Positions 2,836 to 30,486 of a stretch of DNA of 64,000 nt are shown here, in pieces. The first letter of the stretch is position 1. Every line of letters starts with the position of its first letter. The position numbers were made by a program, and so were the translations under genes. The stretch comes from a virus (Duplodnaviria; Caudoviricetes), in IMG/VR virus record IMGVR_UViG_3300014204_000137, positions 1 through 64,000 of that record, one strand, 5' to 3'. The notes beneath the pieces were generated by a model. The model was not told the origin of the DNA, ran no database searches, and saw nothing but the letters and a program-made list of their open reading frames with translations.

Positions 2836-3828
2836 ATGAAAACTCATAATCACTATCACAACATAATAGAAAAATCAAAATTCGTTCCTACTGATAGAAA
2901 TGAACTACTCTTTAGAAAGACAGTTAAGAGAATGTTTAAAGACTACGAGTACGCAATATTAAAAGGATTGAGTGAAATTAATAATAAGCAAGAAACAAAA
3001 AAGTCACTAGGAGACTTTAATCTAGGAGCAATCTTTTCAATTGCTTTAACTAAAATACAAGGATACGTAAATAAGTTTACAGCAGTAGCTTCTAACTCTG
3101 CTCAACAAGGTGCAGATAAAGCTTATCACGATATGGGTATATCTCTAGCATGGGATATTAATATGACACCCATAGTAGATTTCTACAGAGATCATTATCG
3201 TGAATGGATGAGTGACGTAGTAGGAAAAGGTGTGCAAGAAGAGATCAAAGATGTAATAGCAGAAGGAATAAGAGATGGAGAATCCATAGATGATATCTCC
3301 AAAAAAATAAAAGACTTTTTTGAACATCCAATAACAGTACCTGAACAAGTAGACGAAGAAGGACAAGTAACAAGAAAAGCTTACCAAATAGATAAAGACG
3401 TTTACGCAGAAACTGTAGCACGCTCTGAAGTTTCTGGAGCAGTTAATAACGGAAGACTTTTTGGTTATAGTGAAGGTGGTTTAGTAAAGACTGTACGTTG
3501 GTTTTCAAATCCAGGAGCTTGCGAACTATGTGTAGAAGAACATGGACAAGTTTATACAGTTGCGGAAGCTCAAGGGTTAATTCCAAAGCATCCTAACTGT
3601 AGATGTACTTGGTTGGCGGAAGAATATGGTGAGTATAAAGAGGAAGAAGATAAGCCAAATATCCTTTCGGAGCCAGAAAAAATAGTAGCAGATCCTCACG
3701 GAGTAGGAATCATGGACTTTATGAAGATGACAGAAGAACAGACGAAACAAGTAGAAAAACTTTTAGATAAAGAGCAGTACAAAGAGGCAATTAAGTTAAT
3801 GCATAAGTTTACAGGGTACAAAGGATAA
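2836..3828 (+). CDS. Head morphogenesis protein (MuF / SPP1 gp7 family)
   Basis: IAEGIRDGESID, AETVARSEV, ACELC, IPKHPNCRC motifs. Confidence 0.9.
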   Translation: MKTHNHYHNIIEKSKFVPTDRNELLFRKTVKRMFKDYEYAILKGLSEINNKQETKKSLGDFNLGAIFSIALTKIQGYVNKFTAVASNSAQQGADKAYHDMGISLAWDINMTPIVDFYRDHYREWMSDVVGKGVQEEIKDVIAEGIRDGESIDDISKKIKDFFEHPITVPEQVDEEGQVTRKAYQIDKDVYAETVARSEVSGAVNNGRLFGYSEGGLVKTVRWFSNPGACELCVEEHGQVYTVAEAQGLIPKHPNCRCTWLAEEYGEYKEEEDKPNILSEPEKIVADPHGVGIMDFMKMTEEQTKQVEKLLDKEQYKEAIKLMHKFTGYKG

Positions 3829-3830
3829 AA

Positions 3831-4127
3831 ATGAAAATTCAATATCAGATAGATCCATCTTACAATAGTGAAGAGACTCTTCAAGTAGCAGGTATTCTTT
3901 TAGGAATACTTCTCAAAACTTTTAAAGCACTTAAAGCTTCTGGTAGAAAGTTTGAATCTACTGATTTAGTATTCTGGCCCCTCAATGCTTTTCAAATAGG
4001 AAAGACAAAGAAGTTATTACTTATGTCTAGTCAAAAAGGACAAGTAGCGTTAGAATATATGGATGAGAAGTTTTTAAAAGCATTAGAGGAAGCGCAATTA
4101 AAAGTTTCCAGAGAGGTGGTTTCATGA
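3831..4127 (+). CDS. Hypothetical protein downstream of MuF
   Basis: 98-aa ORF tightly packed between neighbours; ATGA overlap with the next gene. Confidence 0.7.
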   Translation: MKIQYQIDPSYNSEETLQVAGILLGILLKTFKALKASGRKFESTDLVFWPLNAFQIGKTKKLLLMSSQKGQVALEYMDEKFLKALEEAQLKVSREVVS

Positions 4128-5773
4128 ACTATTTCCGTTGCGAGAAATGCAGTAGAGAATTTTGGAACGGTTCAGATAAACTATTCATCTGTCCAATTTG
4201 TAAAGAAAGAGATAGCGTAAAAAGACTTTCTCTTGATTTAGGAAAACCAAAGGTATCTGAAATTTTACAGAATCCAACTATCTTAAGTAAAAGTACTGAT
4301 CAAGAATTACTAGGGAGTCACAAAAAATTTCATAGACTATTTACTGTTCTAAGAAAGATGCCTCACAGAGAAGTTAATTCTTCAGTAGCATCAATTATGG
4401 AAGTTGCTAGTGCGCACACAATTCTAGTAGACGAAATGAGTAAAAGAAAACTACCTCACGTAATTAAAGATACTCTCGATAGAAGTACCAAAAGAGTTTC
4501 AAATAAAAAAGCAGACGTCAAATCAATAGAACTACTCCAAGATTGGAAAGACACTACACTAGTAGAAGATGTAGTCTCTGTTGTAGGATCTTCTTTATAC
4601 AAGGATAACCCCAAAGACGTAGACGTAGTATGCAAGTTTACCGGAGTAAAAGTTATCGAGGACGCAATTAGAAAGGTACTAGAAAAGAAACAATTACCAG
4701 TACATATCATACATGGAAAGTCTCATGGCGAGTACGTTCCCAAATACGACTTGGTACTAAGAGAGAAACCAATTGAGAAAAAACTAGCAATCAAACCTCC
4801 CAAGTACGAATACGTGCATCCACTACAATATGTGGAGAAGACAACTGATACAGAGAAATTTATAGTAGAACCCTACATCAGAGAAGCAAAGAGACTACTG
4901 ATAATTAGGAAGGATGGAAAAGTAACAATACACCTATCGGAACACAAACAACTCTTAAATGAATCCTTCATAAAGAGAATACAATTAATAGAAGAACCAA
5001 AAGACTTCATACTAGATGGACTACTATTAAAGAATGGAACAATAGTACTACAGGATATAATAGAGAAGGACCAAAACAACTTAAAAGAAGATCCATTACT
5101 AAGTAGAAAGACTTTCCTTATAAAGACAAGAATACCAAGGCAGGCAAATATTGCCTTTATTAAATTCAAACTTTGTAAATCAAAAGTAGAGTTAGCACAA
5201 ACCCTAAATGACTATAAGAGTAAGAACCGAGACGCTATTATCAAACCAGCGTATAGTAAGTATGCCTCCAGCAGTGAAAGCGCAGGATGGATGCGTATGA
5301 ATTATGCTCCTCTCGCCAAACTAGACTTGGGGTGCGGATCCCGGAAGGCGCAAGGTTTTGTTGGCTTGGATAAGAAGTCGGGAGTTGGAGTAGACGTTGT
5401 CTGCAACCTAGAGAAAGACATACCCTTCGAATCAAATAGTTGTGCAGAGATTCGCGCTAATCACTTTGTGGAGCATATTTCGAATCCGCAACATATCATG
5501 GAAGAGATCTACCGAGTTCTCATCCACAAAGGAATCGTAACCATTACAGTTCCAGAAGCAAGTACTAAAGGAGCTCAAAAACATCTCGACCACAAATCCT
5601 ATTGGAACGACTTCAGCATGGACTACTATACGGAACCTTACTTGATTAAGAAGTTCCAGACCAAAGCGTACTTCAAAATCAAGTCGTTCAAAAAGAAATC
5701 TTTCTTTACAGGATTTACAAAGCGAATACATCTCACGTGGACGTTGGAGGCGATTAAAAAATATGAATCATAA
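4124..5773 (+). CDS. Multidomain protein: Zn ribbon, His-rich helical domain, Pol-beta-type nucleotidyltransferase, degenerate ATP-dependent ligase-like domain, SAM methyltransferase
   Basis: CEKC..CPIC; VVGSS..KDVDVV; FILDG..QDIIEKD..PLLSRK (ligase-like, no KxDG); LDLGCG..GLD..IPF..HFVEHI..EIYRVL. Confidence 0.7.
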   Translation: MNYFRCEKCSREFWNGSDKLFICPICKERDSVKRLSLDLGKPKVSEILQNPTILSKSTDQELLGSHKKFHRLFTVLRKMPHREVNSSVASIMEVASAHTILVDEMSKRKLPHVIKDTLDRSTKRVSNKKADVKSIELLQDWKDTTLVEDVVSVVGSSLYKDNPKDVDVVCKFTGVKVIEDAIRKVLEKKQLPVHIIHGKSHGEYVPKYDLVLREKPIEKKLAIKPPKYEYVHPLQYVEKTTDTEKFIVEPYIREAKRLLIIRKDGKVTIHLSEHKQLLNESFIKRIQLIEEPKDFILDGLLLKNGTIVLQDIIEKDQNNLKEDPLLSRKTFLIKTRIPRQANIAFIKFKLCKSKVELAQTLNDYKSKNRDAIIKPAYSKYASSSESAGWMRMNYAPLAKLDLGCGSRKAQGFVGLDKKSGVGVDVVCNLEKDIPFESNSCAEIRANHFVEHISNPQHIMEEIYRVLIHKGIVTITVPEASTKGAQKHLDHKSYWNDFSMDYYTEPYLIKKFQTKAYFKIKSFKKKSFFTGFTKRIHLTWTLEAIKKYES

Positions 5774-8144
5774 TTTATATGATAGCGTAATCGCTAAGTC
5801 AACGTTTCATCCAGGTATAAAATTCACACCTCCCCAACCACTCTTTACGTCTGATGACTTTGAAGACGTTTGGAAGAACTGGGCAAAGAAACGAATTAAT
5901 AAAGGACATGTTATAAGTGTGGAAGAAGTATGTGAAGGACAACACTGCATACTACAATGGAATGGATTAGAAGCGTTGGTATACACGTCTGCTTCCCGGA
6001 TTAACCTAGCGAAAAACCATCCTACAGTAGTAGAAGAGTTAAAGAAAATAGGTCCTTGCATACTAGAAGTAAGTTTAAAAGGAAGTTCAATCAAAGCGTT
6101 CGACATCCTATACTACCAAGAACAGAACTTAACTGATCTATCTTTAAACAAGCGTCAAGAGTACTTAGCAAAAGCAATTCAAAATACACTCATAACTAAA
6201 GTAGAAACTCATACAGCAAACTCCAAAGACTCGCTAAAGAAATTAATTAATGGACGACGAGTTATGTTAAAAACGTTAAGCAGTAAGTTTGAATTTGAAG
6301 TTAATCAGAATTGGGTAATGCTAAAAGGTGGAGAAGGTTCAGGACGTTATCCTAAAGGAAGCGGTTCTCCAGAAGTATCAACAGGAGCTAGATTATCTGC
6401 AGATGAAGTAGCTAATTTAAAAGAGGATGCTACTACATTAGAAGTATTACACGGTACTAGTATTCAAGCGGCAGAAAAAATTATAGCAGAAGGAATTCAG
6501 AAACAAAATTATCATAATTATGGAAAAGAATTAATGTATGGAGATCGACTACAAAAAGTCTTCGTTACTCGAAGTAGAGAGTACGCTGGATTTTTTGGTC
6601 GAATGGCTTCTATTGAAGCAAATCCACCCGGGAAGAGAACCTTCGCAGTAGTTAAAGCAAGAATACCTAAATCGTATTTTACACAAAGTGCCCAACCTGA
6701 TACAGAAACTGAAAGTAAATTTAATTATATTCTTCCTGAAGTAAAAAAAGAATGGATCGTAGGTTTTGCTACTTTTCAACGTAGTTTAAGTACCATCATA
6801 TTCTATATACCTATGTCGATAGAAAATGCTCAAAAATTACAAATAGTAATGCCAAAACGAAAAATTAAATTAATAATCAAAAAAGAAAACATCCAGCAAA
6901 TAGTTTCTCTACCAGAATGGCAATCTTTAAGAACTCAACTAATAGGACAATGGAAAGAAAATCCTGCTGCTAGTGTAGGTAAATTAAGAGAGTTTTTAGG
7001 TCCTGTACGAGACGCTAGCGATAGAAAATTAAGAATCATACATAACTACTTAACAGGATCAGGTTTTAGAATTGGAGTTATTTCTCATCCAGCAATAACA
7101 GAATTACTCACTGCGGTACGAAATGAAGTAGTTCGCCGACGCAAAGAAAATAAGATTTCTAAGGGTGGAGAAGGTTCAGGACGTTATCCTAAAGGTAGTG
7201 GGGATCCTGAACCTACAAGTAGTTCATCAACTTCAGGCTTTAGTAGAGATCCATATAAGGAGATGAATACTTTAACAGGGGTAGAAATGGACAACCCAGG
7301 AAAAGTAAAAGTAAAGTTAGAAAAAGGAAAGTTTGAAACTATAAAAAATATTCGAGACATTAAAGGATCGAATCCTGGTATCAATGAAACATACTTTGTA
7401 AAAATTTCTGGAGATGGCGAAGGAGTAGTTAAACCTGGCGACTTAGATATAGTACAAAATGAGGTCACAGCAGATACTGTAGACGACGAATTAGGATTAA
7501 ATATTGTACCCCCAACTACAGCACGTGTAGTAAATATACCTGTAGGACCAGCAGGGGGAATACACGAATCTGATACTCCCGTTTCGCAGCGTAAACCAGC
7601 TACTTCTGGTGAAGAACGCGCTGCTTCTATTCAAGCAAAAGTAAATGATACACAATCATTCACTCAGTTTGAACGTACTGAGATTTGGGGTAAAATGCCT
7701 CTAGGTACGAGACCACAAGGAAAAATGGAAGTTATAGATCCTGTGGATTTTGTCAAACTAGACATTCTAGATAGGGTAATTGGAAATGAGGATAGACATG
7801 GTGGTAACTTTTTAGTAACCAATAAAAAAGATTCAAACGGATTTCATAAGTTAGTCGCAATAGATCACGGTTACTCAATCAGCCAGTTTAATAACCGTTC
7901 TCATTTAGAAGAGATTGGTAATCAAGCGTTACGTGTACCTGGTTTAAAAATAAATCGTTCAGAACTTAACCAACTAAAAGAACATGTTAGATCATTTAAC
8001 TTTGACAACTTATTAAAACGAACCTACGAAGGCAAACCAAAAAATTATTTAGTAAACGCGCGCAAACGAGTAGCTGAGATCAAAAGAGATAGATACTGGA
8101 ACCAAATAGATATTTATATAGCAGGAAAAAGGAGTGCTGCATAA
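5763..8144 (+). CDS. Multidomain protein: degenerate ligase-like domain, ADP-ribosyltransferase-like domain, helical domain, HipA/PI3-4-kinase-like domain
   Basis: AFDILYY..LTDLSLNKRQEYL; LHGTS..IIAEGI..VFVTRSREYA; GVVKP..NEV..LGLNIVPPT..DRVIGNEDRHGGNFL..AIDHGYS; two KGGEGSGRYPKGSG linkers. Confidence 0.7.
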   Translation: MNHNLYDSVIAKSTFHPGIKFTPPQPLFTSDDFEDVWKNWAKKRINKGHVISVEEVCEGQHCILQWNGLEALVYTSASRINLAKNHPTVVEELKKIGPCILEVSLKGSSIKAFDILYYQEQNLTDLSLNKRQEYLAKAIQNTLITKVETHTANSKDSLKKLINGRRVMLKTLSSKFEFEVNQNWVMLKGGEGSGRYPKGSGSPEVSTGARLSADEVANLKEDATTLEVLHGTSIQAAEKIIAEGIQKQNYHNYGKELMYGDRLQKVFVTRSREYAGFFGRMASIEANPPGKRTFAVVKARIPKSYFTQSAQPDTETESKFNYILPEVKKEWIVGFATFQRSLSTIIFYIPMSIENAQKLQIVMPKRKIKLIIKKENIQQIVSLPEWQSLRTQLIGQWKENPAASVGKLREFLGPVRDASDRKLRIIHNYLTGSGFRIGVISHPAITELLTAVRNEVVRRRKENKISKGGEGSGRYPKGSGDPEPTSSSSTSGFSRDPYKEMNTLTGVEMDNPGKVKVKLEKGKFETIKNIRDIKGSNPGINETYFVKISGDGEGVVKPGDLDIVQNEVTADTVDDELGLNIVPPTTARVVNIPVGPAGGIHESDTPVSQRKPATSGEERAASIQAKVNDTQSFTQFERTEIWGKMPLGTRPQGKMEVIDPVDFVKLDILDRVIGNEDRHGGNFLVTNKKDSNGFHKLVAIDHGYSISQFNNRSHLEEIGNQALRVPGLKINRSELNQLKEHVRSFNFDNLLKRTYEGKPKNYLVNARKRVAEIKRDRYWNQIDIYIAGKRSAA
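6327..7195 (+). repeat. Identical 32-bp direct repeat (6327-6358 and 7164-7195)
   Basis: ggtggagaaggttcaggacgttatcctaaagg at both positions, encoding the core of KGGEGSGRYPKGSG. Confidence 0.95.
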
Positions 8145-8413
8145 TGAGATATATCGACTATTACAGTTTAACCGACGACTATAAACTATTACTCATAGAT
8201 AGGATTTATGAAGAAGGTGGATTAATTGGAATGCAATTAAATCCCAAAAGCTCTTTCCTAGTTGATATTAGACGTAGATGCAAAACTCTAGAAGATGTAG
8301 TTAAGAAGATGGGAAGTAGTTATACAGTATTCGGAGTTATCAAAGAAGCACCTCTACCAAGAAAAGTACGACTGATAATACGTAAACCTTATGACCCCAA
8401 TTATAATAAATAA
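8144..8413 (+). CDS. Small protein coupled to the kinase-domain gene (candidate immunity/partner)
   Basis: TAATG stop-start overlap; 89 aa; function is inference. Confidence 0.6.
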   Translation: MRYIDYYSLTDDYKLLLIDRIYEEGGLIGMQLNPKSSFLVDIRRRCKTLEDVVKKMGSSYTVFGVIKEAPLPRKVRLIIRKPYDPNYNK

Positions 8414-9893: not shown

Positions 9894-10919
9894 ATGGACG
9901 AAAAACTTTTAAAAGCATTAACGACAGCAGGAGATTTTAAAATCGATGATCCTAGTGGTGCAGGGTATCTACCCAAGCCCCTAGCGGATGAAATCGTTAG
10001 ATATATTACTGAGATCAACTATTGCAGACAGATTTTCCGTATGGTTCCTATGGCCAAGAAGACTCTGGATATTCCAGTGTTAACTTCTGGTCGGAATACA
10101 CCCGGGAAAGGTGTCTACTATGTTCCTTCTCAGGTCGATATTTCTGGCAAAACAGATCAGATCGGTCCGAAACTTCACGCAGTCAGATTAGAAGCTAAGA
10201 AACTTATGGCATTTGCAAACGTCGACAACGACGACATTGAAGATGCAGCAGTAGACGTAGTTGATCTACTTCTGGAATCTTTCGGTGAAGCATTTGCTGA
10301 AGCGGAAGAGCTCGCTATGATGGCAGGTGATCCTACGGATGCAGGAATCGATGCGGATGATCCTCGCAAAGCATTTACTGGTCTAGCTAAATTGGCTGAC
10401 GCAGCAACAGTCGTTGAATCCCAGGCTATTACCGAGACAGATTTGGAATGGAAAGGAATTGAAGAAACCGTTTCAAAGGCTATTAAACGTCTTGGAAAAT
10501 ATGCACGTAATAGAAAGAATCTGGTTCTTTTCATCGACACAGCTATTGCAGAGTATTGCCGTAGATCTCGTAGATTAGTTAACATCACGAACTTAGCAGG
10601 AGCACGTACTGGTGACGCCGCAATGGTAGAACCGGGACAGGCTGATACAATCTATGGTATTAAGACTTACGAGTCTTCTTATCTAGATTATCTGGGGGCT
10701 ACTCTCAAGGGAACTAAAGGTACTGGTATTCTGGTACCCGCAGACGAACCTTTGATCGGTGACCGTCGGAAGATCAAGATCGTGAAGAAAGAGCTTGAAG
10801 AGCATGACAAAATCAGATTCGTCATATCCGAAAGGATTGACTTTAACGTCAGACATCGCGCATACAATGCGGGACAGGCTGGGGTTTCTGAGGCTGTTTG
10901 CTTAATCAAGTTTAACTAA
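9894..10919 (+). CDS. Major capsid protein (HK97 fold)
   Basis: GYLPKPLADEI, L.AKKL.A, IED, FAEAEELAMMAGD; follows protease; strong RBS (ggaggt) and downstream terminator. Confidence 0.9.
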   Translation: MDEKLLKALTTAGDFKIDDPSGAGYLPKPLADEIVRYITEINYCRQIFRMVPMAKKTLDIPVLTSGRNTPGKGVYYVPSQVDISGKTDQIGPKLHAVRLEAKKLMAFANVDNDDIEDAAVDVVDLLLESFGEAFAEAEELAMMAGDPTDAGIDADDPRKAFTGLAKLADAATVVESQAITETDLEWKGIEETVSKAIKRLGKYARNRKNLVLFIDTAIAEYCRRSRRLVNITNLAGARTGDAAMVEPGQADTIYGIKTYESSYLDYLGATLKGTKGTGILVPADEPLIGDRRKIKIVKKELEEHDKIRFVISERIDFNVRHRAYNAGQAGVSEAVCLIKFN

Positions 10920-10937: not shown

Positions 10938-10972
10938 GAAGGGCTAGACTAAACATCTAGCCCTTCTTTCTT
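10938..10972 (+). terminator. Intrinsic terminator after the capsid gene
   Basis: gaagggctaga-ctaaaca-tctagcccttc followed by tttctt (11-bp perfect stem). Confidence 0.85.
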
Positions 10973-29568: not shown

Positions 29569-30486
29569 ATGAAACAAATTAGACCTATGTCTGCAAATGC
29601 AACTCCCAAAAACAAACTAGAGGAACTTTATTTGGATCCTAATTATATAGGAGAGCGTAAGTTTGATGGTTCTCGATACGCACTGCAAATTGCTGACGAT
29701 GGAATCTTCTTTACTAGTAGGAAGGAATCAGTTAAAGGAGGAATGGTAGACAAAACAAAAAACGTTCCTCAAATAGTAGAGGAGATGAAAAAGCTTCCAG
29801 TAGGAACTATTCTAGATGGAGAAGTAGATGTAAGAGAAAACGTTCGCAATTTTAAATTTGTACAGTCAGTAATGGGTTCCTTGCCAGAGAGAGCACTACA
29901 ATTACAAGAAGCAAAAGAGAAGTTAGTATATAAGGTTTTCGATATTTTAGAGTTTGCAGGAGAAAATTTACGGGATAAAACGTTATTAGAACGACGATCG
30001 ATTCTCGAGCAACATATTTCTAAGGACAAATTTTGCTATTTAGTTCTAGTAGAGCAGTTTATAAATAAAAAAGAATTATATAATGAGGAGATAAGTAGAG
30101 GACAAGAAGGCATAATGTTAAAGAACCTTCAGTCTATTTACGTAGAAGATAAGTCGCCTTGCAAAACGTGGTATAAGGTTAAAGCTCATGAGACTTACGA
30201 TGGAGTTGTATTAGGATACAAATTTGGAACTCTTGGAAGTAAGTACGAAAAAGATTTAGGTACTCTGACTGTACACCAATACGTAGACGGTCAATTAATT
30301 CACGTTTCTGACGTAGGAGGTTTAACAGTACAAGAACGTAAAGAGTTTAAAGAGCGATTAGATCGAGGAGAAAAATTCATAGTTGAGTTTGACGCGTATG
30401 GTAAGTTTGAAGACACACATAGATACAGACATCCAAGTTTTGTAAGAGAACGAACTGATAAAAATGAAAAAGATTGTAAGTATTAA
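29569..30486 (+). CDS. lig: ATP-dependent DNA ligase
   Basis: ERKFDGSR, ILDGEV, VFDIL, EGIMLK, WYKVK, RHPSF. Confidence 0.95.
   Translation: MKQIRPMSANATPKNKLEELYLDPNYIGERKFDGSRYALQIADDGIFFTSRKESVKGGMVDKTKNVPQIVEEMKKLPVGTILDGEVDVRENVRNFKFVQSVMGSLPERALQLQEAKEKLVYKVFDILEFAGENLRDKTLLERRSILEQHISKDKFCYLVLVEQFINKKELYNEEISRGQEGIMLKNLQSIYVEDKSPCKTWYKVKAHETYDGVVLGYKFGTLGSKYEKDLGTLTVHQYVDGQLIHVSDVGGLTVQERKEFKERLDRGEKFIVEFDAYGKFEDTHRYRHPSFVRERTDKNEKDCKY

Follow-up and report, generated by a model that had tools for sequence, protein, structure and literature searches.

Phage polyvalent proteins, described by Iyer, Burroughs, Anand, de Souza and Aravind in 2017 (PMC5512222), include protein-modifying domains of several kinds, namely ADP-ribosyltransferases (ARTs), kinases, GNATs and Pol-beta nucleotidyltransferases (NTases), as well as DNA methylases, and fusions to MuF are found among them. 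The pattern described for these proteins (PMC5512222; PMC9503650) is also seen in the head-morphogenesis operon of a phage represented by the IMG/VR record IMGVR_UViG_3300014204_000137. The analysis covered positions 1-64,000 of this 98.6-kb record, for which the completeness estimate is 72%; this 64,000-nucleotide stretch is referred to as the window. At 2836-8413, two large open reading frames (ORFs), ORF1 and ORF2, lie between the gene for a MuF-like minor head protein and that for a prohead protease. They probably encode polyvalent effector proteins, that is, trains of enzyme cassettes that would be packaged in the virion and injected. The original prediction for this DNA had placed two large coupled ORFs between these two genes, and both the ORF map and the domain matches of the flanking genes confirm it; its view that the combination was not a recognised one was overstated, as the concept is that of the published polyvalent class (PMC5512222).

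Several features are shared with that class. Disparate chemistries are joined in each polypeptide: a ligase fold and a methyltransferase (MTase) in ORF1, and a ligase fold, an ART fold, a small helical domain (domain C) and a kinase in ORF2. The setting is that of late virion genes beside MuF, with the order from MuF to the protease and capsid genes kept wherever the contigs of relatives extend that far. The repertoire (ART, kinase, putative Pol-beta NTase, methylase and uncharacterised domains) also matches; the domains are common to giant MuF-fused proteins, and they vary in the manner of cassettes. By contrast, the free-standing format, with effectors that are not fused to MuF, is new with respect to the class, as is the use of two DNA-ligase adenylation domains lacking the catalytic lysine as constant modules; where PMC5512222 speaks of ligases, in the section on 2H phosphoesterases, RNA ligases are meant. 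The Tpt1-like ART and the PI4K-II/Fam20-like kinase belong to families not captured by curated polyvalent-protein models, the ART lacking a match to ART-PolyVal (PF18760). The kinase of ORF2 matches PI3_PI4_kinase and Fam20, and might still be part of the Ser/Thr kinase clade without a C-lobe that PMC5512222 describes. Furthermore, no zincin-like metallopeptidase is present here, the prohead protease being the sole nearby peptidase.

The MuF polymorphic toxins of temperate phages (Jamet et al. 2017, PMC5576092) resemble this locus in having a variable, MuF-linked enzymatic effector in the head module, and in the idea of delivery by the virion. However, those toxins have a MuF domain at the N-terminus and the toxin at the C-terminus of one protein, and in many cases an immunity gene comes next, whereas MuF is separate here and no co-varying immunity gene was seen. 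T4 Alt, which had been proposed as a parallel, remains a functional analogue, being a late-made, head-packaged and injected ART that acts on host proteins. The analogy does not extend to descent: in Alt, which is of the R-S-E type, gp21 cuts an N-terminal sequence that targets the protein to the capsid, and membership of the ORF2 domain in its family was rejected because that domain is an H-type, Tpt1-like ART.

The locus and the company of its domains elsewhere

According to the ORF map, 2836-8413 consists of five coupled genes, in a window whose genes are on the plus strand throughout. These genes, their domains, the protease gene that follows and an intact ligase gene found elsewhere in the window are given below. 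Labels of the forms L00x and P00xx denote, respectively, related metagenomic loci and related proteins of this analysis.

2836-3828, plus strand: MuF-like minor head protein (MuF/SPP1-gp7 type), 330 amino acids (PF04233 3.6e-10, TIGR01641 1.8e-10, phrog_115 1.2e-19)
3831-4127, plus strand: conserved 98-amino-acid protein, syntenic in L002, L003, L005 and L006 at 34-52% identity
4124-5773, plus strand: ORF1, 549 amino acids
4124-4228, plus strand: CxxC...CxxC zinc ribbon, ORF1 residues 1-35 (sequence; AF2 pLDDT about 80, three strands; weak zinc-ribbon Pfam matches)
4250-4789, plus strand: helical region and Pol-beta-NTase-like module, ORF1 residues 43-222 (homology to P0028, motif)
4790-5311, plus strand: DNA-ligase adenylation (nucleotidyltransferase) fold, ORF1 residues 223-396 (VIA, Foldseek)
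5312-5770, plus strand: class I S-adenosylmethionine (SAM)-dependent MTase, ORF1 residues 397-549 (PF08241 1.2e-6, phrog_6636 2e-9)
5763-8144, plus strand: ORF2, 793 amino acids
5763-6323, plus strand: ligase adenylation-like domain, ORF2 residues 1-187 (PF01068 2.1e-7)
6324-6374, plus strand: linker 1, Gly-rich, peptide KGGEGSGRYPKGSG, from ORF2 residue 188 (about 188-201)
6405-6848, plus strand: ART-superfamily domain, ORF2 residues about 215-362 (Tpt1/KptA profile, AF2 model, VIA, Foldseek)
6849-6887, plus strand: basic strand element PKRKIKLIIKK, a cassette boundary (pattern found twice in the plus-strand frames of the window)
6888-7157, plus strand: domain C, helical, about 90 amino acids, ORF2 residues 376-465 (EWQ..LR..L.G.W ... 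NYLTGSGFR)
7158-7208, plus strand: linker 2, second copy of KGGEGSGRYPKGSG, ORF2 residues about 467-480
7260-8141, plus strand: PI4K-type-II/Fam20-like kinase, ORF2 residues about 500-793 (PF00454 1.6e-6)
8144-8413, plus strand: ORF of 89 amino acids with a basic strand element at its end, no counterpart in L002
8466-9833, plus strand: prohead serine protease S78 with a long C-terminal extension (PF04586 1.8e-17, phrog_80 4.6e-26)
29569-30486, plus strand: intact ATP-dependent DNA ligase, motif I ERKFDGSR (PF01068 1.4e-26)

The support for packaging comes from the proteins in which the same domains are found elsewhere. A set of 36 long proteins, all sharing domains or linkers with ORF2, was scanned; MuF occurs in six of them, the XkdF prohead protease in five, ART-PolyVal in three and minor capsid protein 2 in one, and others carry Acb1-like/2H, SAM lyase, RelA-SpoT or GNAT domains. 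In five of the 36, domain C and an XkdF prohead protease domain are part of one polypeptide, with domain C on the upstream side. Homologues of the ART, the kinase and domain C, along with the KGGEGSGRYPKGSG linker, occur in proteins of 1000-3200 amino acids together with MuF, ART-PolyVal, GNAT, 2H and RelA-SpoT domains. Used alone as a query, the linker peptide retrieves proteins built of many cassettes with linkers between them; the polyvalent proteins P0007-P0010 contain it several times over, and P0008 begins with a MuF domain. The Tpt1-like ART is combined with MuF and a 2H/Acb1-like domain in P0173, and with a SAM lyase in P0097. Because the same domain families and linker peptide are found elsewhere in fusions with MuF, minor capsid protein 2 and the XkdF prohead protease, there is strong contextual support for head packaging of ORF1 and ORF2, which we infer.

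The arrangement of the genes fits late expression. MuF ends at a stop codon at 3826-3828, and the two putative effectors are encoded two and three genes downstream of it. A gap of 2 nucleotides separates MuF from the 98-amino-acid gene, after which successive genes overlap by 4, 11 and 1 nucleotides. No promoter- or terminator-like sites exceeding shuffled expectation were found in 2836-8413, and a GGAGG lies 12 nucleotides upstream of the ORF2 start. Given this tight packing, the lack of excess promoter or terminator sites and the GGAGG before ORF2, the locus reads as one late operon.

As polyvalent effectors, the ORF1 and ORF2 proteins would be made late and taken into the procapsid along with MuF and the protease or scaffold. 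The adjacent S78 prohead protease may then cut at the Gly-rich linkers, and the products would enter the next host alongside the DNA. There, the H-type Tpt1-like ART, the PI4K-II/Fam20-like kinase and the class I MTase, perhaps with a minimal NTase, would modify components of the host or its defences before phage genes are expressed. Domain C, a stand-alone small protein in other phages, would be delivered pre-made.

An unlikely alternative is that these are late enzymes acting in the producing cell, where their targets would be virion proteins or the DNA of the phage, before or during packaging, for example through capsid phosphorylation or ADP-ribosylation or through DNA methylation, and that they would not be injected. 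As products of head-operon genes they would indeed be present during the assembly of capsid and DNA, and the lack of a MuF fusion in both ORFs also fits such a role. However, the families of the ART, the kinase and domain C are covalently joined to MuF, minor capsid protein 2 or the prohead protease elsewhere, and their pairing with anti-defence-type domains (Acb1-like, SAM lyase) points to the next host. Furthermore, the MTase of ORF1 is not of the DNA-methylase type.

A similar peptide is found near the N-termini of MuF and ORF2, at residues 6-14, reading YHNIIEKS in the former (2854-2877) and YDSVIAKS in the latter (5778-5801). Relatives of ORF2 retain it as YEKYIEKA, even where the ligase domain is lacking, as in the 224-amino-acid ORF of L006. 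The strict pattern, which was derived post hoc, has no further occurrence in the six frames of the window. This peptide could be a candidate capsid- or portal-targeting signal.

Catalytic domains

Motifs for a GS..DxD nucleotidyltransferase, a DLGCG methyltransferase, an HGTS ART and a DRH..N/IDHG HipA/PI3K-like kinase, with a ligase-like domain in each ORF, had been proposed in the original prediction. Every one of these motifs was found in the sequence, and the assignment of four of the five domains is supported by more than the motif. The nucleotidyltransferase call stands in part. Its motif is conserved (G155-S156 and D165-V-D167 in ORF1, with a conserved YDLVL strand at 208-212), GS..DxD being kept in seven of nine ORF1 homologues in the family alignment, but the fold is not established, with an AF2 pLDDT below 50 in this region. 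ORF1 residues 43-222 align with the N-terminal module of P0028 at 32% identity over 196 columns (BLASTP, 5e-16), and five of their first six ESM-Atlas structural neighbours are Pol-beta NTases, at weak TM scores of 0.27-0.48. The motif and these neighbours weakly suggest a putative Pol-beta-superfamily NTase. The helical or the NTase-like segment is missing from some homologues of ORF1.

The MTase of ORF1 has DLGCG at residues 401-405, with D401, G403, C404, G405 and D416 invariant in the family alignment, and gives VIA Z scores of about 11 to small-molecule and tRNA MTases of the Methyltransf_11 type. In sequence it comes closest to MTase domains that form part of GT2 glycosyltransferase fusions. 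A gene of this kind, encoding a GT2 glycosyltransferase and a Methyltransf_11 domain of the type nearest to that of ORF1, is found amid LamG and fibre genes at 3264-4502 of L003.

In ORF2, the AF2 model covers the ART domain, and the calls for the kinase, domain C and the ligase-like domain rest on sequence and profile comparison. MAFFT composite alignments of ORF2 with stand-alone homologues (A2, A3 and A6) misplaced homologues of the ART and the kinase, and were discarded. The HGTS motif of the ART is at residues 230-233. The profile of the ART family matches Tpt1/KptA at 5.2e-5, while the model (pLDDT 82) retrieves Tpt1 with Foldseek at 1.7e-4 and has KptA as its best VIA match (Z 10.7, rmsd 2.4 over 92 residues), the 50 matches listed being mostly ART-superfamily enzymes. 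Among 22 sequences there is no variation at H230, F267 or D313, and hardly any at G231, T232, R262 and E330. Although Tpt1/KptA is the best match in both sequence and structure, the HGT motif included, the match is confined to the NAD+ lobe of KptA (chain residues 85-180). ORF2 has no equivalent of the RNA-binding lobe that forms the N-terminal part of KptA and carries catalytic Arg and His; it is a linker that precedes the ART core. A distant kinship with ART-PolyVal is possible, on the basis of the H / aromatic / D configuration; P0055 does match ART-PolyVal, at 9e-41, but in another region. The C-terminus of P0015 was considered as an R-S-ExE ART, with YRG, SFT and QKE read by eye, but this was not confirmed by Pfam or PDB phmmer.

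The kinase profile, built from 21 sequences, matches PI4K2A at 1.7e-20 and Fam20 at about 1e-14. K557, E567, D677-R-H, N682 and D701 are invariant or nearly so in these sequences, and D670 and N675 are also conserved; DRH..N is at residues 677-682 and IDHG at 700-703. Most of the kinase core of type II PI4K and Fam20 is matched, and conservation extends to the Lys and Glu that bind ATP, the catalytic loop DxxxxNxDRHxxN and the IDHG motif for metal binding, but the phage protein is without lipid-kinase accessory regions. HipA family models give only weak HipA_2 or HipT matches, and these in some relatives. The same kinase family is found in P0058, a MuF protein of 1249 amino acids that has a Hint/intein domain inside its MuF domain (PF05203 2e-9). 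Both the ART and the kinase families are widespread in uncultured phages, where they are unannotated. Domain C likewise belongs to a large family, with many stand-alone phage proteins of about 100 amino acids; in Synechococcus phage Ssp-JY38 it is a 99-amino-acid protein within a run of small unannotated genes. No match to domain C was found in Pfam, PHROG or PDB profiles, and ESM-Atlas yields small viral hypothetical proteins only.

Ligase folds without the catalytic lysine

The ligase-like domains, one in each ORF, are among the features that set the locus apart from the known polyvalent proteins. That of ORF1 resembles Lig3 in structure (VIA Z 16.0, rmsd 3.1 over 167 residues; Foldseek 3.7e-9). 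That of ORF2 aligns with the intact ligase of the same phage, both in a profile comparison (hhalign probability 94.8, E 4.9e-8) and at 28% identity over 92 columns, and with P0160 in BLASTP (1e-13). In neither is the adenylatable lysine present. Motif I of ORF1 is E-P-Y in place of E-x-K(-x-D-G), and its family has EP[YL] and never K. In ORF2 motif I reads E-E-V-C-E-G-Q-H, with K changed to V, and the DGE of motif III is lost; ERKFDGSR of the intact ligase is paired with EEVCEGQH, and KYDGNR of P0160 with CEGQH. The residue at the lysine position is V/K/K/E/N/N across six aligned members of the ORF2 ligase-like family, which implies that this family is not under selection to adenylate. Both domains share the adenylation fold of ATP-dependent DNA ligases but are missing the lysine of motif I KxDG and the OB-fold: no OB-fold domain follows in ORF1, where the MTase begins at residue 397 directly behind motif V, or in ORF2, where the linker begins at residue 188.

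With the lysine lost, and in ORF2 also motif III, the ligase modules therefore act non-catalytically and not as ligases. The proposal that they are scaffolds agrees with this, as without the motif I lysine they look like non-catalytic scaffolds; they may be either scaffolds or binders of nucleic acids or nucleotides. For a function in binding, one of the structural neighbours of the ORF1 domain offers a precedent. The m3G-cap-binding domain of Snurportin-1 (Z 12.7) has the ligase and capping-enzyme nucleotidyltransferase fold, and has lost catalysis but binds a nucleotide. Snurportin-1 is, however, eukaryotic and has no evolutionary link to the ORF1 locus.

The ligase modules of ORF1 and ORF2 descend from an intact phage multidomain ligase, and ligases of the P0028 and P0160 type are the apparent ancestors of both. 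P0028 is an uncharacterised phage multidomain ligase with a helical region, a Pol-beta-NTase-like module and an intact ligase domain (motif I KVDGFR; PF01068 9.5e-14), followed by an OB-like region and a LigD-phosphoesterase-like tail, the latter two read by eye only. P0160, also an uncharacterised phage protein, joins a metallo-beta-lactamase-fold domain (PF12706) and an NTase-like motif to an intact ligase. Enzymes of this type are possible end-processing and sealing enzymes.

It is conceivable, though doubtful, that the dead ligases, drawn from the ligase lineage of the phage itself, bind nicks or DNA ends and anchor the free-standing effector trains, either on the packaged genome or, via the common N-terminal peptide, on MuF or the portal. 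In that case the cargo would enter the capsid and leave it with the DNA although it is not fused to MuF, and the Gly-rich linkers would be both prohead-protease sites and recombination handles.

The ligase folds also bear on an explanation that is very unlikely, in which the locus would be a nucleic-acid end-repair toolkit like Pnkp/Hen1 plus KptA, repairing the cuts that host defence nucleases make in tRNA or DNA. All five domain types do have counterparts in RNA repair, the ART being closest to Tpt1/KptA and the ligase folds descending from the intact multidomain end-processing ligases P0028 and P0160, and Pnkp-C is among the structural neighbours (Z 10.5). Yet the motif I lysine is missing from both folds, at a position conserved in neither family, and an intact ligase is encoded separately by the phage, at 29569-30486. 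In addition, the kinase has the PI4K-II/Fam20 fold and is not a P-loop polynucleotide kinase, the RNA-binding lobe of KptA is missing, and Hen1 is absent among the MTase matches. With the lysine, a P-loop kinase and a Hen1 match all lacking, Hen1/Pnkp-type RNA repair was rejected as the principal interpretation.

Cassette exchange among related loci

A backbone of MuF, a gene of about 100 amino acids and ORF1 is kept in four related metagenomic loci, and a gene of the 98-amino-acid type directly follows MuF in all five loci compared. The 98-amino-acid protein itself has no matches in Pfam, PHROG or NCBIfam. The protease gene comes next in L002, L005 and L006, and the capsid gene is found in L002 and L006; the L003 contig stops earlier. 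The content between MuF and the protease, or after MuF in L003, is as follows.

Window: 98 amino acids; ORF1, 549 amino acids; ORF2, 793 amino acids (ligase-like, ART, domain C, kinase); 89 amino acids
L002: 98 amino acids; ORF1, 464 amino acids; ORF2, 656 amino acids (ligase-like, small Cys/His domain, ART, helical tail)
L003: 98 amino acids; ORF1, 464 amino acids; ORF2, 469 amino acids (like L002, without the ART)
L005: 102 amino acids; ORF1 joined via a linker of the L002/L003 type to more cassettes (811 amino acids); no separate ORF2
L006: 104 amino acids; HNH homing endonuclease; ORF1, 537 amino acids; ORF2 of 224 amino acids without a ligase domain

Domain swapping at this locus among related phages had been anticipated, and the differing content of L002, L003, L005 and L006 bears this out: cassettes are gained, lost or fused at linkers. 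The ART of L002 is flanked on both sides by copies of the linker KYGTSEGA..AWDTRGRG, and L003 has the same ORF2 minus the ART. The homing endonuclease of L006 (NUMOD3 and HNH, 3413-3973), between the gene of about 100 amino acids and ORF1, is a sign of mobile-element traffic. A search of IMG/VR with the ORF2 N-terminal alignment as the query found no further loci.

In the window, the two KGGEGSGRYPKGSG copies of ORF2 enclose the ART domain, the basic strand and domain C. They share an identical run of 32 nucleotides, for which the probability of identical codons, given the peptide and the codon usage of the phage, is approximately 2e-4. This identity implies that the linker DNA was recently shared, which is consistent with recombination at the linkers. 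L002 and L003 use the other linker, KYGTSEGA..AWDTRGRG, and no literature on these linker peptides was found. The basic strand pattern [KR][KR][IV][KR]hx[IV][KR][KR] is found behind the ART at 6855-6884 and at the end of the 89-amino-acid ORF at 8360-8386, with no other site in the plus-strand frames of the window; in the relatives P0006, P0029, P0014 and P0177 this element precedes linkers or closes proteins.

Another very unlikely explanation is that the two proteins are largely decayed internal head cargo, pseudo-enzymes serving as bulk or structural internal proteins. Two of their domains are dead as ligases, and no other part of the module evolves as fast as the ligase-like domain of ORF2, which has 34% identity to its counterpart in L002 where the capsid protein has 81%. 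However, the kinase, MTase and ART keep invariant cofactor-binding or catalytic residues across distant members, and the ART, 69% identical between the window and L002, is above both MuF and the protease in this comparison.

Several observations nevertheless weigh against ORF1 and ORF2 being polyvalent effectors. Both are free-standing and MuF is unfused, unlike in the classic cases. The curated ART-PolyVal model finds no match in ORF2 and nine family members at E values up to 5, and the strand-2 aromatic residue of the ORF2 ART is Phe, not Tyr. The fold of the NTase-like region is unconfirmed, and the MTase resembles small-molecule, sugar and tRNA MTases, so that its target is not nameable. 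No linker peptide is present within ORF1, and linker cleavage in maturation is something that we infer. Lastly, a search for cultured relatives by megablast, with the region as the query, found nothing among 50,697 phage records, and tblastn with ORF1 and ORF2 yielded partial matches only, to the MTase and domain C.

Downstream of the S78 protease is an HK97-type capsid gene (PF05065), which ends with a stop codon at 10919. Right after it, at 10938-10966, is a G+C-rich hairpin of 12 bp, listed on the minus strand, which may be a terminator or an attenuator. Upstream of MuF, collagen-like and LamG fibre-type genes lie between it and the portal gene. The portal, which had been described as adjacent to the locus, is in fact about 9 kb upstream of it on the permuted map (G000 91612-92616).

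Virion-delivered polyvalent effectors are a computational prediction of 2017, and are candidate sources of anti-defence and host-takeover enzymes. In the dead-ligase modules of this phage, an essential replication-type enzyme appears to have been recycled into a non-catalytic module. The locus is compact and cleanly bounded, and its natural variants differ by single cassettes; hence it is good material for addressing questions of packaging, linker cleavage, and the functions of the ART and the kinase.

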